From the NCBI RefSeq assembly GCF_009931435.1, contig NZ_CP043414.1: a DNA stretch of 64,000 nt. One strand, given 5' to 3'. This document shows, piece after piece, positions 9,090 through 58,459 of this stretch (position 1 is its first letter; the number at the start of each line of letters is the position of its first letter). Both the position numbers and the translations under genes were made by a program. This stretch comes from Escherichia coli (GTDB lineage: Bacteria > Pseudomonadota > Gammaproteobacteria > Enterobacterales > Enterobacteriaceae). The notes under the pieces were generated by a model that was not told where the DNA came from, ran no database searches, and worked only from the letters and a program-made list of their open reading frames with translations.

Positions 9090-9271
9090 ATCTCCTCCAG
9101 GTAAGTCGGGTACGACCTGGCTTACCTCTTTCGCTCTCGTCAGAATTCCATCAAGATTAATTGCTAAAAAGCGTGCTAAAGAAAGAAGATCGTTATCGGC
9201 GAACGGGCCGATCACTCATGCAGGAAGCATAGATCCTTTGAGCGGAGTTTCTGATATCTGAGGAGTGCGAA

Positions 9272-10033
9272 ATGCAATTGAGCAGCAGTGAACCTTGCGT
9301 GGTGATCCTGACCGAAAAAGAGGTAGAGGTAAGCGTCAATAACCATGCCACGTTTACCCTTCCGAAAAATTACCTGGCCGCCTTCGCGTGCAACAATAAC
9401 GTCATTGAACTCTCAACGTTAAATCACGTATTAATCACCCACATCAACCGTAACATCATCAACGATTATCTGTTGTTTTTAAATAAGAACTTAACCTGTG
9501 TAAAGCCCTGGTCGCGGCTGGCTACCCCGGTTATCGCTTGTCATAGCCGTACACCGGAAGTGTTCCGGCTAGCCGCCAACCACAGCAAGCAGCAACCCAG
9601 CAAACCCTGCGAAGCGGAGTTGACGCGCGCATTGCTTTTTACCGTATTGTCTAACTTTCTTGAGCAATCGCGGTTTATTGCCCTACTGATGTATATCTTA
9701 CGCAGCAGCGTCCGCGACAGCGTCTGCCGCATTATTCAAAGCGATATTCAGCATTACTGGAATCTGCGAATTGTCGCCAGTTCGCTCTGTTTAAGCCCCA
9801 GCCTGCTCAAAAAGAAATTAAAAAACGAAAATACCAGCTATAGCCAGATTGTCACAGAGTGTCGTATGCGTTACGCCGTACAGATGTTATTGATGGATAA
9901 CAAAAATATCACTCAGGTGGCACAATTGTGTGGGTATAGCAGCACGTCGTACTTTATCTCTGTTTTTAAGGCGTTTTACGGCCTGACACCGTTGAATTAT
10001 CTCGCCAAACAGCGACAAAAAGTGATGTGGTGA
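9272..10033 (+). CDS. envY: AraC-family porin thermoregulator EnvY
   Basis: ORF track 253 aa; C-terminal AraC-type HTH; K-12 position next to ompT. Confidence 0.8.
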   Translation: MQLSSSEPCVVILTEKEVEVSVNNHATFTLPKNYLAAFACNNNVIELSTLNHVLITHINRNIINDYLLFLNKNLTCVKPWSRLATPVIACHSRTPEVFRLAANHSKQQPSKPCEAELTRALLFTVLSNFLEQSRFIALLMYILRSSVRDSVCRIIQSDIQHYWNLRIVASSLCLSPSLLKKKLKNENTSYSQIVTECRMRYAVQMLLMDNKNITQVAQLCGYSSTSYFISVFKAFYGLTPLNYLAKQRQKVMW

Positions 10034-10078
10034 AGGGCAAAGCGGAAACAGATAAGACTGGCATAAATGAAGAAGAAA

Positions 10079-10123
10079 TGGCGCGCCCTGCAGGATTCGA
10101 ACCTGCGGCCCACGACTTAGAAG
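10079..10123 (-). repeat. 45-bp copy of the 3' end of tRNA-Arg (prophage attachment-site repeat, distal end)
   Basis: Sequence tggcgcgccctgcaggattcgaacctgcggcccacgacttagaag identical to 58383..58427; diverges afterwards. Confidence 0.8.
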
Positions 10124-10546
10124 TTCCTAGAACGACATTTTAAGTCAACAACTTACCGCGCCATCTCTGCGCTCACACGTCCCACTACCTCAAAACATGT
10201 AAAGCCTTGCAAGCCATTGCGAGGCCTTATGTGTCTCAGTTTTGTCCCTCTTTTTTGTACTAAAAAACATAGTAATTGAGGATAAACCTCATGCTATTTT
10301 CGCTTATATGCCTCTAAAGGCATGGCACTTAAATAGATAAAAGCACCACAAAAGCATAAAAAAACCACACAGTAAAACCGAAATATGAAACAATAACAGA
10401 TAATTAAACCAAAAACAGATAGCGCATTGTGATAATCATTCAATACTAAACAAAATATAAACAGTGGAGCAATATGTAATTGACTCATTAAGTTAGATAT
10501 AAAAAATACATATTCAATCATTAAAACGATTGAATGGAGAACTTTT

Positions 10547-11500
10547 ATGCGGGCGAAACTTCTGGGAATAGTCCTGACAACCCCTATTGCGATCAGCTCT
10601 TTTGCTTCTACCGAGACTTTATCGTTTACTCCTGACAACATAAATGCGGACATTAGTCTTGGAACTCTGAGCGGAAAAACAAAAGAGCGTGTTTATCTAG
10701 CCGAAGAAGGAGGCCGAAAAGTCAGTCAACTCGACTGGAAATTCAATAACGCTGCAATTATTAAAGGTGCAATTAATTGGGATTTGATGCCCCAGATATC
10801 TATCGGGGCTGCTGGCTGGACAACTCTCGGCAGCCGAGGTGGCAATATGGTCGATCAGGACTGGATGGATTCCAGTAACCCCGGAACCTGGACGGATGAA
10901 AGTAGACACCCTGATACACAACTCAATTATGCCAACGAATTTGATCTGAATATCAAAGGCTGGCTCCTCAACGAACCCAATTACCGCCTGGGACTCATGG
11001 CCGGATATCAGGAAAGCCGTTATAGCTTTACAGCCAGAGGTGGTTCCTATATCTACAGTTCTGAGGAGGGATTCAGAGATGATATCGGCTCCTTCCCGAA
11101 TGGAGAAAGAGCAATCGGCTACAAACAACGTTTTAAAATGCCCTACATTGGCTTGACTGGAAGTTATCGTTATGAAGATTTTGAACTCGGTGGCACATTT
11201 AAATACAGCGGCTGGGTGGAATCATCTGATAACGATGAACACTATGACCCGGGAAAAAGAATCACTTATCGCAGTAAGGTCAAAGACCAAAATTACTATT
11301 CTGTTGCAGTCAATGCAGGTTATTACGTCACACCTAACGCAAAAGTTTATGTTGAAGGCGCATGGAATCGGGTTACGAATAAAAAAGGTAATACTTCACT
11401 TTATGATCACAATAATAACACTTCAGACTACAGCAAAAATGGAGCAGGTATAGAAAACTATAACTTCATCACTACTGCTGGTCTTAAGTACACATTTTAA
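10547..11500 (+). CDS. ompT: Outer membrane protease OmpT (omptin)
   Basis: ORF track 317 aa; signal peptide; recognised omptin sequence; AT-rich flanks. Confidence 0.9.
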   Translation: MRAKLLGIVLTTPIAISSFASTETLSFTPDNINADISLGTLSGKTKERVYLAEEGGRKVSQLDWKFNNAAIIKGAINWDLMPQISIGAAGWTTLGSRGGNMVDQDWMDSSNPGTWTDESRHPDTQLNYANEFDLNIKGWLLNEPNYRLGLMAGYQESRYSFTARGGSYIYSSEEGFRDDIGSFPNGERAIGYKQRFKMPYIGLTGSYRYEDFELGGTFKYSGWVESSDNDEHYDPGKRITYRSKVKDQNYYSVAVNAGYYVTPNAKVYVEGAWNRVTNKKGNTSLYDHNNNTSDYSKNGAGIENYNFITTAGLKYTF

Positions 11501-11749
11501 GAACGCCAACTAAAATTTCCCCGAGGTGAAAATCGCCCCGGGGAATAACTAGCCATTTCAATGTAACAATTAACCCTTAAAATAAACCCAGAAGGTTATT
11601 AACTAAATCACATAGAAAACCATCAATTATAGTATGTATAAAATAGGCGACAGCAACCCAATTACAAATTAATGGTTCCAGAATATCACATCAAAAAAAA
11701 CGCTGTATAATATTATAATTAACATGTAGACAACTTGTAATAAACATTA

Positions 11750-12499
11750 TCAGTCAATTGTTTTGTTTATTCCATCTGTGACGCCGATTATTTTCTCAAA
11801 ATAATGAGATGGCGTGACACCATAATAATCTTTAAATGCACATATGAAATATGAAGTACTGTTATAGCCACATTTCTGGGCTACGACATTGATAGAATAA
11901 GAGTTTGAAGTTATGAGTTTTTTTGCATACCTCATCCTAGTATCTCTCAATATTTCAGTAAATGACGTTCCTTCATCCCTTAATCTTTTTTTTATTAAAC
12001 TTTCACTCGTATAAATCAATTCCGCAATATCTTTTAAATGCCATTGCCGCTCAATATTAAAACTGATTATTCCAGTAATTTTACAGGTAAATGTATTTAT
12101 ATTTGTTAGTATAAATGAATTTACACTTTCGCGTTTTTTGAACATGGCAAGTAAGGATATACATAGTCTTTCTTTTAACCAAAGGGAGTGTGAGTCTGCT
12201 ATTTTAATCCCTTCAAACAGAGAAAAAACAAGCGATAATGGAGGTTCCTCTTCAGCAATATAGCCATTCTTATCAAGAGTAAATTTGCCAGGCAGCTCAT
12301 TATTCACGTCGATAAAAAAGGATAAACATGTTTTCTTATCTATATCAACAATTCTTAGTTTAGAGGGGCATACTGGTAACTCCCTTCTAATTTTGTCGCT
12401 TACAATAAACAATGAATTTTTTTTGAACGAGATAACTCTCCTGTTTATAATTAAATCAAATGATTGACAGATGAAAACTACGGAGCAAACATAATCCAT
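11750..12499 (-). CDS. appY: AraC-family transcriptional activator AppY
   Basis: ORF track 249 aa; C-terminal AraC HTH; low-GC gene. Confidence 0.82.
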
Positions 12500-13119
12500 C
12501 TTGCACCTATCATAAAATTAAAACAAGTTGATAGTAGTCAAATAACAACCAATTAAATACACAATCATAATCAGGATGATGTGCATTTATATTTTTATAC
12601 ACAAAATTATAGTTTGCAAATTTTAATAAATTTCATTTAAGATTAAATTATTATATGTATGTTGTTTTTTATTCTAACTTATTTCAAAGTTACATTTTTC
12701 AACGCTTACTATGCTTTTTATTAACATAAACTCACTACAACGCACCTGAAACCTCTTGCTATATATATGTCAACCGTTTGAATTTAAAATAAAAAGAGTA
12801 TCATTTTTACTTGCATTTCTTATCAAGTCACATTCAACAACAGTAAAAAAACATTATTAGAACCATTCAATTAACAAAAAACCAACATCCAGCTTGCTTA
12901 ATTTTTCTTTATTAAACGATATTGAAAATCAATTGATAAAATACATCTAAACAACCTTTTGGGGCGCAAAAGCATAACATCAAACAAACAAATAACACAC
13001 CGAAAAAACTCACAATTAATAACCTATGATATACATACTGTTTATTATGGTTGAATAAGCCACTCGATATCTGGTGCTACGGAAGTGTCCACACGGTTTA
13101 GCAGCACCCGATACTTTTT

Positions 13120-13305
13120 TCAGGCTTCCAGCAACGATCTTTCTTCCTCCGTTGCGATTTCCAGATCTACAGCATCCTGCAGTGGCGCAATATACTCACT
13201 GAATTCCTGGATGTAGAACTGTGTAGTGACGGTCTTCCAGCCATTCGGCTCCTGCTGTATTGAAGCATACCAGGCTATTTCAATATCGCTATGCTGCGGC
13301 AGCAT
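13120..13305 (-). pseudogene. tfaX: Tail fibre assembly protein remnant (C-terminal fragment, tfaX-like)
   Basis: 61-aa ORF shares the motif [23 protein letters not shown] with Tfa at 14095..14679; about 130-bp DNA direct repeat. Confidence 0.6.
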
Positions 13306-13443
13306 TTAACCCCTTGTAATTCATTGCCATAATTGATTTAATTCACAAATAAAACTATAACATGGTGAAATTAATAAAAAAACACAGATGATGGGGCTAG
13401 AATTTACACACCACTTACCCTAAAGCTTTATGACTGGTGGGTT

Positions 13444-14040
13444 TTGGGAGTATCAAATCGGCTTGCATGGGGATGTCCTACAAAGGAACACCTTCTTCCA
13501 CACCTTCTTCCACACTTTCTGGAACATTTAGGTAACAACCATCTGGATATTGGTGTTGGAACTGGGTTTTACCTTACTCACGTACCTGAGAGTAGTCTGA
13601 TATCTTTAATGGATTTGAACGAAGCTAGCCTGAACGCGGCATCTACAAGGGCTGGGGAATCAAAAATTAAACATAAAATTAGCCATGATGTTTTTGAACC
13701 TTATCCCGCGGCGTTACATGGTCAATTTGATTCCATTTCCATGTCTTACCTTCTTCACTGCCTGCCTGGAAATATATCTACAAAAAGCTGTGTAATACGC
13801 AATGCGGCGCAGGCCTTAACTGACGATGGAACTCTATACGGAGCCACAATTCTTGGCGATGGAGTTGTGCACAATAGCTTCGGTCAAAAACTGATGCGCA
13901 TTTACAATCAGAAAGGCATCTTTTCAAACACAAAAGATTCCGAAGAAGGCTTAACACATATACTCTCAGAGCATTTCGAGAATGTTAAAACCAAGGTTCA
14001 AGGTACTGTAGTAATGTTTTCCGCTTCAGGAAAAAAATAG
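13444..14040 (+). CDS. ybcY: Putative SAM-dependent methyltransferase-like protein (YbcY-like)
   Basis: ORF track 198 aa; glycine-rich motif LDIGVGTG resembling methyltransferase motif I; lies between tfa and the tfa remnant. Confidence 0.55.
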   Translation: MGVSNRLAWGCPTKEHLLPHLLPHFLEHLGNNHLDIGVGTGFYLTHVPESSLISLMDLNEASLNAASTRAGESKIKHKISHDVFEPYPAALHGQFDSISMSYLLHCLPGNISTKSCVIRNAAQALTDDGTLYGATILGDGVVHNSFGQKLMRIYNQKGIFSNTKDSEEGLTHILSEHFENVKTKVQGTVVMFSASGKK

Positions 14041-14094
14041 CATCCAACCGCAGCATGTTCTTGCTTAAGACGTGCTGCGGCATAATCCCAATGA

Positions 14095-14679
14095 TTACTC
14101 CCTGACAGGGTTCGTAGGCCACTCAATATCAGGTGCAGTTGATGTATCAACACGGTTCAGCAACACCCGATATTTTTTCCAGGCTTCCAGCAATGAGGTT
14201 TCTTCCTCCGTTGCGATTTCCAGATCTACAGCATCCTGAAGTGGCGCAATATGCTCACTGGCTACCTGCATCAGGCTGTTTTTTGTTTCTTCCGCCTCCC
14301 GAATCCGGAACAGTTTTTCTGCTTCTGCATCTTTCACCCAGGCTGTACCGTTCCACTTCTGAAACTCCCCTTCCGGCGATAACCAGGTAACATTTTCCGG
14401 TAACGGACCGAGTTCAGAAATAAATAACGCGTCCCCTGACGCTACGTCATAAACCGTTTTACCCCGATGATCTTCAACGAGATGCCACGATGACTCATCA
14501 CTGTTGAAAACAGCCACGAAGCCAGCTGGAATATCTGGCGGTGCAATGTCGGTACTGTTTGCTGGCAGACCTGTATGAGGCGGAATATATGCGTCACCTT
14601 CACCAATAAATTCATTAGTTCCGGCCAGCAGATTATAAATTGTTATGGTCCGTGGTTGTTCACTCATTCTGAATGCCAT
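14095..14679 (-). CDS. tfa: Tail fibre assembly protein Tfa
   Basis: ORF track 194 aa; start overlaps the stf stop by 1 nt; lambda Tfa-like. Confidence 0.85.
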
Positions 14680-17600
14680 TATGCAAGCCTCACAATATAG
14701 TTAAATGCGATGTTTTTGACGGTGTTTTCCGCGTTACCAGCAGCGTTAACGGTGATGGTGTGTCCATGTGAGCCAATCGCAACCGAGTGCGTATGAGCAC
14801 CAATACCGACAGTATGTGCGTGTGCACCTGCGCTTGCTGCAGTGCCGGACAGTGAGTGGGTATGAGCACCATCTGATGATGTCTTCCCTGCATTACGAGT
14901 CTGGCCACTACCGCTTGTTGTGCTCATAATCCCCGCGCTTGGATTTGAAATCGCGGTATAACCATTAGGGAAAATGCTCGTGTTCGTGCCACCAAATGCA
15001 CCGGAACTCTTGTGTTGGTGCGCACCGGCACTATTTGCGGTCCCGCTAATACTATGGGTATGCGCCCCGGTGTTATTCGTGGATTTGGTTCCGTAATCAA
15101 ACGACGATGTGGTTTTCGTCCCCAAATCCGTACTGGATGCGCTGGCGCTGTGGGTATGCGATTTAATGCCGTCCTGTTCCTGAGACAATACGGCCCGACC
15201 ACTGGCAGGTTTGCCCTTAATCGTCCAGCCACGCATATCAGGGATCACGCCTGACGGATAAGCCGCTGCAAGTTTCGGGTAGGCAGATTTGTCAAAAGCC
15301 TGCCCCTGCATCAGGGCATAGCCAGACGGAACGGTATCTGATGGCCACGGGATTGGTGCGCCGACTGGGTAGCTTTCTGGTGGAAGATTTTTCGAGGTAT
15401 AAACTTCTGCCCAGTCTTCCTCAAAACCATAGCCATCTCTTGAGGAACGGTAGAACAGACCTCCATTTCTGTAATGCGCCTTCATCTGCAGGGTCCGGCA
15501 ACTTCCGACTCCGGTATAGAAGTTAACCAGAATATAGCTGTCGCCAGAGCGGGTGACATTGTAAGCGCCTGATTCGGCATTCCAGGGAACGCCACCATCC
15601 GCATCGGCATATGTATCCGTTGCCCTTCTGGCAAAAGCAGCCACATGCGCGGCGGTTAAAGTAATATCTTTGGAACCATCAAACTCAACACCAGAAACCA
15701 GTCTTGGCGTTTGCAGCTTTGTTGCTGTTAATGCATTACCGTTCAGACTTGCGGACAGTTTGGTTCCAATAATCAGTTCGCCGGTTGCGTTATCAATAGC
15801 AAACGGTCTTAATGTATTCCAGCCACCATAAACATCACCTTGATTGGTAAGCAGCAGGTAAGTTTTAGCGCCATCATTACGCCATAATGCACCATACTCC
15901 CCACCTATCATTCGAATCTGATTACCACCACGCGCTACAATTTCGTCTGTGGCAAAAAGTTTTTTGCACGACAAGTTATCGTTAACGATTAACGAATGAG
16001 ACTCATAAAAACCACGCCCACTCTTAAAATCAAGGATAACGTCCGCCGCGATACATTCAGTCGCCGGATTTGTTGCCCCAAACTTATAGGTCGTATCATT
16101 AACAACGAGATCAGCACCAGGTGCGGATATTGACAGGCCATCTTCGATAAACGCAAAAACAGGGAAAGCAGCGCCATCAACATAGAACACAGAGCGCAAA
16201 TCATCGCCCTTATTACTCATCATTATTGAGTGGATGGCTCGTTCATTGTTTTGATATTGCCAGAACATTCCATAAGCATAACGCCCCCTGTCAGTCCAGC
16301 CACCAGGCATAACAAATCCGTTAAACTCGCAGTTATTCATCGGATCGCCTGCGGTTCGCGTTGCCGTGGTGATAATGACCCTTGATGCCAGTTCGCTTAC
16401 TGAGCCAGCAGAACGCATAACAACAACAGGGTAATATTTTCCAGATGTTGCACCTGCAGGAGCGTTAACCCGCACATAACGCATACCACGCTTATCAGCA
16501 AAGTCTGTTTTACTGACCGCGTTAATGTTGTTCAGGAAGCGTCCCTTATCGGGTATATCAGCGCCGTTCTGGTCTTTCTGCAGACGTTTCTCTGCATTGT
16601 CATAGGCTGATTTTACTGCCTTTGGCGTTGCCGCCAGCGTTTCAGACGTACTGTTGGTCGCACTGCTGAGCTGTACTACCCCCTTTTTCGTCGTGCTCGC
16701 ATCCTCAAGCGCCACGGCGGATGCAATATCCTCTGCCCGTTTTGCCGCTGTCTCGGCGCGCGTTGCCGCGGATTCCGCCGTACTTTTGCTCTGAGCTGCC
16801 GCCGTCGCACTGCCAGCTGCCTCTGTCGCCTTCGTGGATGCCGTCGTGGCGCTGCTCTTCGCTGCTGACGCTTGTCTGGTCGCCTCATCTTTTGAAGCAG
16901 ACGCAGATGATGCCGATGACGCCGCCGAACTGGCTGACGATGCGGCAGCCGTTTTTGAGGATTCTGCGCTGGTTTCCGACGCTTTCGCGTTCGTTTCGGA
17001 TGTCTTCGCTGCGGAAGCAGAACTCGCTGCTGCGCTGGCCTGTTCAGTGGCTTCGCCAGCCTTCGTTGTGGCTGTTGAAGCAGACGATGCGGCACTTTCT
17101 GCCGACTTTCCGGCAGCGGTGGCACTGGCTGAGGCCTGCCCGGCACTTGTTGACGCGGCGCTGGCAGATGATGCAGCCGCTGTTTTTGAGTCTGCTGCTG
17201 CGGAGGCACTCTGTTCCGCTGCCGTCTCAGAAGACTTAGCGTTCGTCTCGGACGTTTTTGCCGCCTTCGCGGAATTTCCTGCCGCCGTTGCCGAGGAAGC
17301 TGCGCTACTGGCGCTCGAGGATGCGTTCGTTTCTGATGATTTCGCTGCCTCTTTTGAGGCCGCCGCATCCCTGGCTGAGGTGGCAGCTTCTGACGCTTTC
17401 CTGGTCGCGGTGGATGCAGAAGTGGCTGCTGATTGTTGTGACGCTGCGGCATTCGTTTCTGACGTTTTCGCCGCACCGGCACTGGTGGCCGCCGCGCTTT
17501 TTGAGGACTCTGCAGCGGCAGCACTTTTTTCCGCTTCAGTGGCCTTTGCTGATGCCGTTCCTGCGCTGGAAGATGCTGACTGAGCCGACGACGCGGCCTG

Positions 17601-18086
17601 TCCGGCTGACGTGCTGGCTGCGCGTGCTGAGCCTGCAGCATCAGTCGCATGGGTTGCCGCCTCACTGGCAGATGTGCTGGCATCGCCGGCTGACTTCTTC
17701 GCGGCTGCCGTGTTTTGTGCCACCGCGGACGCGTTACGCGCCACCTCTTCCACCATCAGTTCAAAACGGCGCAGAGCCTCCGGACGGGCATCATCCTCCG
17801 TCATGGCACCGAGAAAATCATTCAGCGTACCGGGTCGGGAATCTTCATACACGGTGATGGTCCCGGCATGTGACGGCGGGAATCCTTCCACCAACAGAAT
17901 AACGCTGTACTGACCGTACTCAACGTCCATGCTGTAACGCCCGGCTTCATCCGGATTTTCTGAGGCCAGCGTGTTCACCACCACCGCGGTGCTGTTACGT
18001 TTTGCTTTCAGCTGGATTGTGCAGTTCTGTACCGGTTTTCCTGTGCCGTCTTTCAGTACACCTGAAATCTTTACTGCCATATTCAC
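14679..18086 (-). CDS. stf: Side tail fibre protein Stf with Ala/Ser/Thr-rich repeat region and His-rich C-terminal repeats
   Basis: ORF track 1135 aa; N-terminus and C-terminal GAHTHS/GAHAHT repeats match lambda Stf by recall; central region differs. Confidence 0.85.
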
Positions 18087-37746: not shown

Positions 37747-37944
37747 GTAACCTGTCGGATCGCCGGAAAGGACCCACAAAATGATAATAATTATCATCTA
37801 CATGTCACAACGTGCATCTACGCCATCAAACCACGTCAAATAATCAATTATGACGCAGGTATCGTATTAATTGATCTGCATCAACTTAACGTAAAAACAA
37901 CTTCAGACAATACAAATCAGCGACACTGAATACGGGGCAACCTC

Positions 37945-58367: not shown

Positions 58368-58382
58368 CTGATTGAATTGTAA

Positions 58383-58459
58383 TGGCGCGCCCTGCAGGAT
58401 TCGAACCTGCGGCCCACGACTTAGAAGGTCGTTGCTCTATCCAACTGAGCTAAGGGCGC
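58383..58459 (-). tRNA. argU: tRNA-Arg (anticodon UCU, argU)
   Basis: 77-nt sequence with CCA end matching argU by recall; its 3' 45 nt is the prophage attachment repeat. Confidence 0.88.

Follow-up and report, generated by a model that had tools for sequence, protein, structure and literature searches.

The AT-rich spacer upstream of appY in an Escherichia coli prophage is very probably an H-NS-silenced control region subject to ArcA counter-silencing

Promoter islands, as defined by the Ozoline laboratory, are stretches of at least 300 bp with at least 8 PlatProm-predicted start points per 100-bp window, and the spacer between tfaX and appY in Escherichia coli K-12 was named promoter island PI1 (Shavkunov et al. 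2009; PMC2731890). RNA polymerase forms heparin-resistant complexes on this DNA, as seen by gel shift, and permanganate probing located open complexes at about −190, −155 and −90; the −90 complex produced a sense transcript in vitro, accompanied by an antisense transcript, and no appY cDNA was found in vivo (PMC2731890). On a 423-bp appY fragment, 171 start points are predicted (PMC7054387). For more than 15 years the locus has itself served in the literature as a model, for promoter islands as well as for the silencing of a regulator encoded on a prophage by H-NS and its counter-silencing by ArcA, and its nearest counterparts are the counter-silenced promoters of cydAB and gadE/gadX (Park et al. 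2013; PMC3798270) and the morons of lambdoid phages.

We analysed a 64,000-nt window of the E. coli assembly GCF_009931435.1 (contig NZ_CP043414.1), in which the feature under study is a 620-bp gap at 12500–13119 that proved to be the tfaX/appY spacer of a DLP12-type prophage. On one side lie appY (11750–12499, minus strand), which encodes a 249-aa AraC-family activator and is the gene under control of the spacer, and ompT (10547–11500, plus strand). On the other side are a 61-aa TfaX remnant (13120–13305, minus strand), which like appY is present in both the open reading frame list and the RefSeq annotation, a ybcY pseudogene (about 13362–14040, plus strand), tfaD (14095–14679, minus strand) and a full-length tail fibre gene (14679–18086, minus strand). 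The gene order ompT–appY–tfaX–ybcY–tfaD is that of K-12, and the locus corresponds to the right end of K-12 DLP12 on the opposite strand. Across the spacer, identity to K-12 MG1655 (coordinates 583061–583680) is 100%; a stretch of 801 bases that includes the gap is likewise 100% identical to MG1655, C600, DH5a and numerous further derivatives of K-12. Positions 9180–14533 of the window match MG1655 at 99.55% identity, and 14533–36729 are missing from K-12. The prophage is complete in the window, measures 48.3 kb and is bounded by 50-nt direct repeats at 10077–10126 and 58381–58430, the second of which overlaps the tRNA-Arg(UCU) gene argU. The spacer is thus the known element itself and not a relative of it. 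RefSeq annotates no feature in the spacer in any of the genomes listed. Positions upstream of appY are given below as −N from its ATG, which corresponds to window position 12499 + N; an exact match to the published 55-nt ArcA site validates this conversion.

The gap had been described in the initial annotation as about 600 bp of AT-rich DNA, rich in A/T runs and free of open reading frames of 60 aa or more, between appY and a tail-fibre remnant. This description was borne out over the 620 bp: GC content is 27.6%, compared with 49.5% for the whole window, and A/T runs of at least 4 nt occur at 3.49 per 100 bp in the spacer, about three times the 1.13 of the window and a little above the 2.58 ± 0.56 of region shuffles. 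GC this low is found in only 0.4% of 620-bp windows, all of them at the appY locus, where the AT-rich island extends into appY (31.7% GC) and into the appY–ompT spacer (31.7% GC). No open reading frame of at least 60 aa is present in 12500–13119, the longest being 29–34 aa. The missing open reading frames are uninformative because chance at the same base composition gives an equal result: the longest stop-free stretch measures 54 aa in the spacer and 58 ± 14 aa in composition-matched shuffles, of which no more than 37% attain 60 aa.

The picture of a single AT-rich gap holds for 12500–13044 (545 bp, 25.1% GC) and fails for 13045–13119 (75 bp, minus strand), where GC content rises to 45.3% and the DNA matches decayed tfa coding sequence. 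These 75 bp, which continue tfaX, translate in a shifted frame into the counterpart of the TfaD C-terminus and are the C-terminal end of the tail-fibre-assembly pseudogene, put out of frame; 13056–13201 shares 87% identity with the tfaD 3′ end. One base more than in tfaD is present just ahead of the tfaX stop codon, around 13113–13122, and therefore tfaX stops prematurely at 13120. Positions 13045–13119 are decayed coding sequence and not regulatory DNA, with no role implied. Since this segment reads as the end of a tfa gene, the true non-coding AT-rich DNA is 12500–13044, which we assign (unstranded) as the H-NS-bound regulatory region of appY on the strength of its composition, its K-12 identity and published H-NS data. 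With 25.1% GC over 545 bp, this part shows the low GC content over several hundred base pairs by which H-NS-silenced xenogeneic DNA is recognized. The tfa repeat formed by the tfaX remnant and tfaD also explains why an Rfam match occurs near the spacer. The candidate small RNA IS009 (RF02111) of E. coli matches 13079–13282 with 111.3 bits, below its gathering score of 117, and this sub-threshold match extends 41 bp into the 620-bp gap; it coincides, however, with the tfa coding 3′ end, lies outside the AT-rich part and has a full-score copy at 14138–14336 inside tfaD.

Published experiments on the same sequence support the proposal in the initial annotation that the gap is typical H-NS-silenced regulatory DNA. 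The tfaX/appY promoter island 582438_1016, listed in Table 1 of Panyukov and Ozoline (2013; PMC3661553) and placed by coordinate conversion at 11950–12965 (unstranded), is bound by H-NS in all of the ChIP-chip studies compiled there (Grainger, Kahramanoglou and Oshima), and the spacer carries an H-NS flag in Shimada et al. (2014; PMC3946193). In electrophoretic mobility shift assays, purified H-NS shifts the 423-bp appY fragment (Bykov et al. 2020; PMC7054387), which the published primers, matching exactly, place at 12392–12814 in our window. Repression of appY by H-NS, and its derepression upon loss of hns, is credited by citing papers to Atlung 1996, and also to Purtov et al. 2014. Bykov et al. 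(PMC7054387) themselves point out that footprints of H-NS sites are lacking at the spacer. The high-affinity H-NS motif TCGATAAATT has two matches with two mismatches in the region (12623 and 12933), compared with 2.06 in region shuffles.

Start sites have been mapped here too, so that both observations named in advance as the test of the regulatory reading, transcription starts and H-NS binding, are found in published data. The suggestion that the appY promoter lies in the gap accordingly gains support from reported starts at −25, −81/−85 and −113/−114. Closest to the gene, a putative Shine–Dalgarno-like AGGTG read from the sequence (12504–12508, minus strand) stands 4 nt ahead of the appY ATG. 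It is followed upstream by a σS-type promoter (12524–12537, minus strand) that combines a C at −13 with the −10 element TACTAT (12531–12536) and starts at −25 (12524); this start comes from in vitro transcription, and −25 and −113 are the RegulonDB starts as cited in PMC4469952. In run-off transcription with σS (ROMA), the spacer and appY are enriched, and appY is rpoS-dependent in vivo (Maciag et al. 2011). The dominant promoter is of the σ70 type (12580–12619, minus strand), with TTGCAA (12614–12619) and TAAAAAT (12591–12597) separated by 16 bp and a start at −85 to −81 (12580–12584), and is documented by primer extension and mutagenesis. The main start was placed at −85 in PMC7054387, in which changing TTGCAA to CTGCAA abolishes expression and changing TAAAAAT to TATACT raises it, and the sense start was placed at −81 ± 2 by Masulis et al. 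(2015; PMC4469952); open complex III at about −90, with its in vitro sense transcript, belongs to the same promoter (PMC2731890). For the RegulonDB promoter appYp, whose cited start is −113/−114 (12612/12613), TAAAAT at 12620–12625 is a candidate −10 element (12612–12625 overall, minus strand). Further upstream, genomic SELEX led to the proposal of a ‘constitutive’ σ70 appY promoter formed by the hexamer pair TTATCA and TTTAAT with a 17-bp spacing (12911–12939, minus strand; PMC3946193). All of the reported appY starts are preceded, with suitable spacing, by a −10 element. A generic promoter scan, which found 7 sites versus 5.9 ± 2.6 expected, is uninformative by itself.

The density of promoter-like sites has itself been proposed to matter. 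Surplus sites could trap RNA polymerase in abortive or non-productive complexes and disturb the one productive promoter, so that the silence of appY would not be due mainly to H-NS; we regard this account as improbable. It draws on the several open complexes that form while little RNA is made in vivo (PMC2731890), and on nine rounds of mutagenesis in which mutants selected for eightfold higher reporter output lost many predicted starts and fully kept their in vitro affinity for H-NS (PMC7054387). From these mutants it follows that H-NS binding alone does not explain the silence on plasmids. The activating mutations, however, made the −10 element of the main promoter better as well (PMC7054387). 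Promoter-like hexamer pairs, at 3.49 per 100 bp in the spacer, are indeed five times as dense as the window mean of 0.69, but composition-matched shuffles of the region reach 4.18 ± 0.99, and −10-like hexamers likewise occur at 9.17 per 100 bp in the spacer versus 10.3 ± 1.5 in the shuffles, so that promoter-motif density in the spacer does not exceed the expectation from composition. Because the shuffles have equal density, the island-like motif density is a by-product of AT-richness and no sign of selection. This result agrees with the critique in PMC11661796, which disputes the appY conclusion directly, reports that only about 13% of boxes contribute to activity and found no case in which creating a box lowered activity; it weakens the reading of excess promoters as silencers.

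Relief of silencing has been attributed to ArcA. Its site consists of five direct repeats spanning −389 to −335 relative to the ATG (12834–12888, minus strand), and the 55-nt sequence given in the supplement of PMC3798270 occurs exactly in the window. ArcA peaks were obtained by both ChIP-chip and ChIP-seq, appY expression is 4.6-fold lower without arcA, and the authors propose that ArcA acts on appY by H-NS antirepression (Park et al. 2013; PMC3798270). A Fur ChIP-seq peak is present here under anaerobiosis only, and the effect of Fur is gone once the promoter is moved from its genomic context, for which relief of H-NS repression was suggested (Beauchene et al. 2015). Our scan of the spacer recognized no good Fur box, the best score of 13/19 being equal to background. 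Anaerobic induction of an appY–lacZ fusion was not reproduced by Derdouri et al., and low pH is a further inducer of appY. Binding of RcdA at the spacer is reported in SELEX tables only. The RcdA palindrome TTGTGTACAttTGTACACAA, which the text of PMC3535384 places in the tfaX/appY spacer, has no match in the window even when 3 mismatches are allowed, nor does the short RcdA box TTGTnnACA occur in 12400–13200. That text is probably the product of a mix-up, because the figure legend of the same paper assigns the RcdA clones to ybjJ–rcdA.

Transcription also leaves the spacer in the other direction. Divergent starts pointing away from appY lie at −145, −214 and −225 (12644, 12713 and 12724; 12644–12724, plus strand; PMC4469952), and a plausible plus-strand promoter, TTCAAA-18-TACTAT, ends at 12712 and fits the starts at 12713 and 12724. 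A small RNA in the gap had been entertained initially; the spacer might hold a plus-strand gene for a small regulatory RNA beginning near 12644, 12713 and 12724, a reading that we consider very unlikely. Reverse transcription from a reporter plasmid detected two or three divergent products, and chromosomal qRT–PCR found a signal in the antisense direction that rises with nalidixic acid, from which the authors suggest a novel RNA (PMC4469952); this literature evidence consists of 5′ ends and a qRT–PCR signal, however, without a discrete 3′ end or size. The sequence gave the small RNA no support. A permissive Rfam search of 11000–14500 returned no family in 12500–13044 at E values up to 10, a scan of 12300–13400 for terminators on both strands found no terminator-like site, and RNA-fold z-scores for 100-nt windows of 12500–13044 on both strands ranged from −1.21 to +1.22, none better than shuffles. 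Natural alleles, moreover, carry indels in this stretch. H-NS-bound AT-rich DNA often yields spurious starts, which also counts against a small RNA. We see equally little chance that the divergent plus-strand transcripts are more than noise leaking through H-NS, be it as a non-coding RNA with a function or as a supercoiling switch, coupled to transcription, that tunes the appY promoters; an anticooperative response to gyrase inhibition offers a hint of the switch (Masulis et al.; PMC4469952). Nothing that we computed favours a structured or terminated RNA, and if such a function exists, it might lie in a regulatory transcript that is unstructured and ends by Rho-dependent termination, or in DNA topology alone.

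We give still less credence, close to none, to the idea that the spacer encodes one or more small proteins. Open reading frames of 29–34 aa are present, and the record of phage Kati (PP925833) annotates three of 30, 34 and 31 aa as hypothetical proteins; these tiny genes are automatic calls, though, and chance at the same composition is expected to give open reading frames of this length. A Pfam scan of seven small open reading frames returned no matches, the 34-aa frame has no Shine–Dalgarno sequence, and the lack of RefSeq annotation in every listed genome also speaks against coding. Natural deletions break the frames. In prophage L013, 2 bp are missing at 12769–12770, which frameshifts the 34-aa open reading frame; the loss of 4 bp at 12989–12992 in L003 and of 1 bp at 13008 in L009 does the same to the 31-aa and 33-aa open reading frames.

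Among 5426 complete E. coli genomes, 834 contained the spacer, with at least 95% identity in all but 3 of the 834, and two phage records, Kati and PhiR68_2, contain the same cassette at 99.3–99.5% identity. The link between promoter islands and genes gained by horizontal transfer thus holds for this one, which lies on a 48.3-kb prophage at argU, is found in this subset of genomes and recurs in both phage records. A search of IMG/VR for distant relatives of the cassette returned near-identical E. coli prophages only, and phylogenetic footprinting is therefore impossible. We compared 16 alleles (the window, MG1655, the two phages and twelve IMG/VR prophages) and found that substitutions affect 17 sites in the 545 bp of the spacer, which also shows 6 indel events, compared with 14 substituted sites in the 750 bp of appY. 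Most of the spacer is thus less constrained in sequence than appY, as expected if composition and length outweigh specific motifs, and much of it may have no sequence-specific function, given that its polymorphism exceeds that of appY and that indels are tolerated. In 8 of the 12 IMG/VR prophages, homology to the window ends at about 13155, inside the tfa remnant, and at least two of the prophages, L005 and L011, have unrelated tail genes upstream of this junction. The cassette of tfa 3′ stub, AT-rich spacer, appY and ompT therefore travels as one unit from tail module to tail module, in the manner of a moron.

These data also bear on the upstream extent of the functional region. Apart from the promoters, held within about 130 bp of the gene, and the ArcA site, the spacer could be functionless decayed phage DNA that H-NS coats merely because it is AT-rich. 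We judge this to be somewhat unlikely. In its favour, polymorphism and indel density exceed those of appY, motif counts do not rise above those of shuffles, the 75 distal bp can be shown to be the end of a decayed gene, and for −545 to −390 the function claimed in the literature is limited to the SELEX-derived hexamer pair. Yet the function may reside in length and composition as such, because H-NS silencing typically requires an extended AT-rich platform for nucleation and spreading. The near-uniform identity (at least 95%) of the cassette, spacer included, in all but 3 of the 834 genomes and the continued linkage of the spacer to appY beside different tail modules also argue against mere decay.

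We conclude that the stretch is very probably the upstream control region of appY, silenced by H-NS and counter-silenced by ArcA, with appY and ompT as moron cargo of an argU-inserted lambdoid prophage. H-NS, whose binding has been established by published experiment, would coat the AT-rich 545 bp together with the appY gene; RNA polymerase has been shown to bind and open the DNA at several places all the same, with productive transcription being rare, and H-NS would keep these promoters largely unproductive. Transcription of appY would arise mainly from the σ70 promoter at about −85 and the σS-type promoter at −25, and possibly from −113/−114. Anaerobic induction would come about chiefly by counter-silencing, in which phosphorylated ArcA on the repeats at −389 to −335, where its occupancy has been demonstrated, may relieve H-NS repression of the promoters 220–275 bp downstream, as the authors of that work proposed from genetics. 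Fur may add to counter-silencing under anaerobiosis, as has been suggested, and σS would drive the proximal promoter in stationary phase, consistent with in vitro transcription and with rpoS dependence in vivo. Published experiments establish the binding of H-NS and RNA polymerase, the start sites, and both the binding of ArcA and the dependence on it; that ArcA and Fur act through displacement of H-NS is an inference, as is the upstream extent of the functional region. To the published model, the present analysis adds the placement of published landmarks on the window coordinates and the trimming of the non-coding part to 12500–13044. It also adds that the excess of promoter motifs is fully explained by base composition, which bears on the dispute over whether excess promoters silence genes, and that the small RNA and small protein readings find no support.

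Comparison with known systems places the locus among three described classes. With promoter island PI1 of K-12 it shares the sequence itself, the spacer being 100% identical to that of MG1655 and both the published primers and the ArcA site mapping exactly; the K-12 island differs in extent, reaching 550 bp into appY and ending 154 bp before tfaX, whereas the present feature comprises the whole spacer only. Like the counter-silenced promoters of cydAB and gadE/gadX (Park et al. 2013), appY has several hundred base pairs of AT-rich upstream DNA, H-NS repression and an activator bound far upstream that works by antirepression instead of recruitment of RNA polymerase; at appY, unlike at those promoters, the H-NS sites are not footprinted and antirepression was inferred from genetics. 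The locus further matches phage morons in its cargo position, its distinct GC content and the presence of the same cassette on unrelated tail modules. As with lom and bor of phage lambda, ompT and appY sit with the tail-fibre module on one side and the att repeat on the other, have a base composition unlike that of the flanking phage genes and possess their own promoters. No terminator was found flanking the spacer, in which it differs from those lambdoid morons, and appY departs from them also in its product, which is not a surface protein but a transcription factor that rewires host regulons.

Within the AT-rich spacer between tfaX and appY (12500–13119), comparison of 16 alleles revealed variation in the -10 hexamer of a sigma-S-type promoter. 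At position 12535, 36 nucleotides upstream of appY (11750–12499, minus strand), the window, MG1655 and four further alleles carry A and read TACTAT; the remaining ten alleles carry G and read TGCTAT instead. Owing to this base difference, many strains may have only a weaker version of the proximal appY promoter known from K-12, or lack it altogether. The main text of the RcdA paper (PMC3535384) also assigns the RcdA palindrome TTGTGTACAttTGTACACAA to this spacer, and a search allowing up to three mismatches did not find the palindrome in the window. By contrast, a figure legend in PMC3535384 attributes the clones in question to ybjJ-rcdA, which looks like an inconsistency within the publication.

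On the other side of appY, the appY–ompT spacer (11501–11749; 31.7% GC) corresponds to a second published promoter island, 583602_323, and has been proposed as a possible location of the candidate small RNA IS021 (Shavkunov et al. 2009, PMC2731890). An Rfam search of 11501–11749 returned no match. Elsewhere in the prophage, the top Fur-box-like palindrome of the whole window (37777–37801; 16/19 to GATAATGATAATCATTATC) lies within the ylcI–nohD spacer.

The tail-fibre-assembly remnant tfaX extends beyond its annotation (13120–13305, minus strand) to occupy 13045–13305, with its final 20 codons running on in a different frame to 13045. Alignment with the neighbouring tail-fibre-assembly gene tfaD (14095–14679, minus strand) identifies one additional base in tfaX immediately ahead of its stop codon, at about 13113–13122, and the stop at 13120 results from this single base. 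The 3′ ends of both genes match the Rfam candidate small RNA IS009 on the minus strand: one match (14138–14336, 227.8 bits) lies exactly on the tfaD coding 3′ end and the other (13079–13282, 111.3 bits) exactly on that of tfaX. In the window, both matches therefore fall on a conserved repeat inside protein-coding sequence and not on an RNA gene of its own.

In 8 of 12 IMG/VR prophages, the appY cassette is preserved with a short tfa stub and homology to the window ends at about 13155. Two of these twelve loci, L005 and L011, carry other tail genes upstream of the junction, such as a 227-amino-acid or 346-amino-acid fibre protein, in place of tfa and ybcY. The shared junction suggests recombination inside the conserved tfa 3′ end.

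The window contains a complete 48.3-kb DLP12-type prophage bounded by 50-nucleotide direct repeats (10077–10126 and 58381–58430) at argU (tRNA-Arg UCU, 58383–58459). Across 12500–16500, no complete RefSeq E. coli genome matched the window at more than 98.4%, and the source strain is therefore other than K-12 despite an identical appY spacer. The class I SAM-dependent methyltransferase gene ybcY, which phage Kati and other strains carry in intact form, occurs in the window as a pseudogene (13362–14040); the window and K-12 have both lost 2 bp close to the 5′ end of this gene, and a 12-bp tandem duplication (CACCTTCTTCCA; about 13493–13516) is present in the window and absent from K-12. K-12 DLP12 lacks about 22 kb present in the window (14533–36729), including the gene for a 1,135-amino-acid tail fibre, and is thus a derivative.
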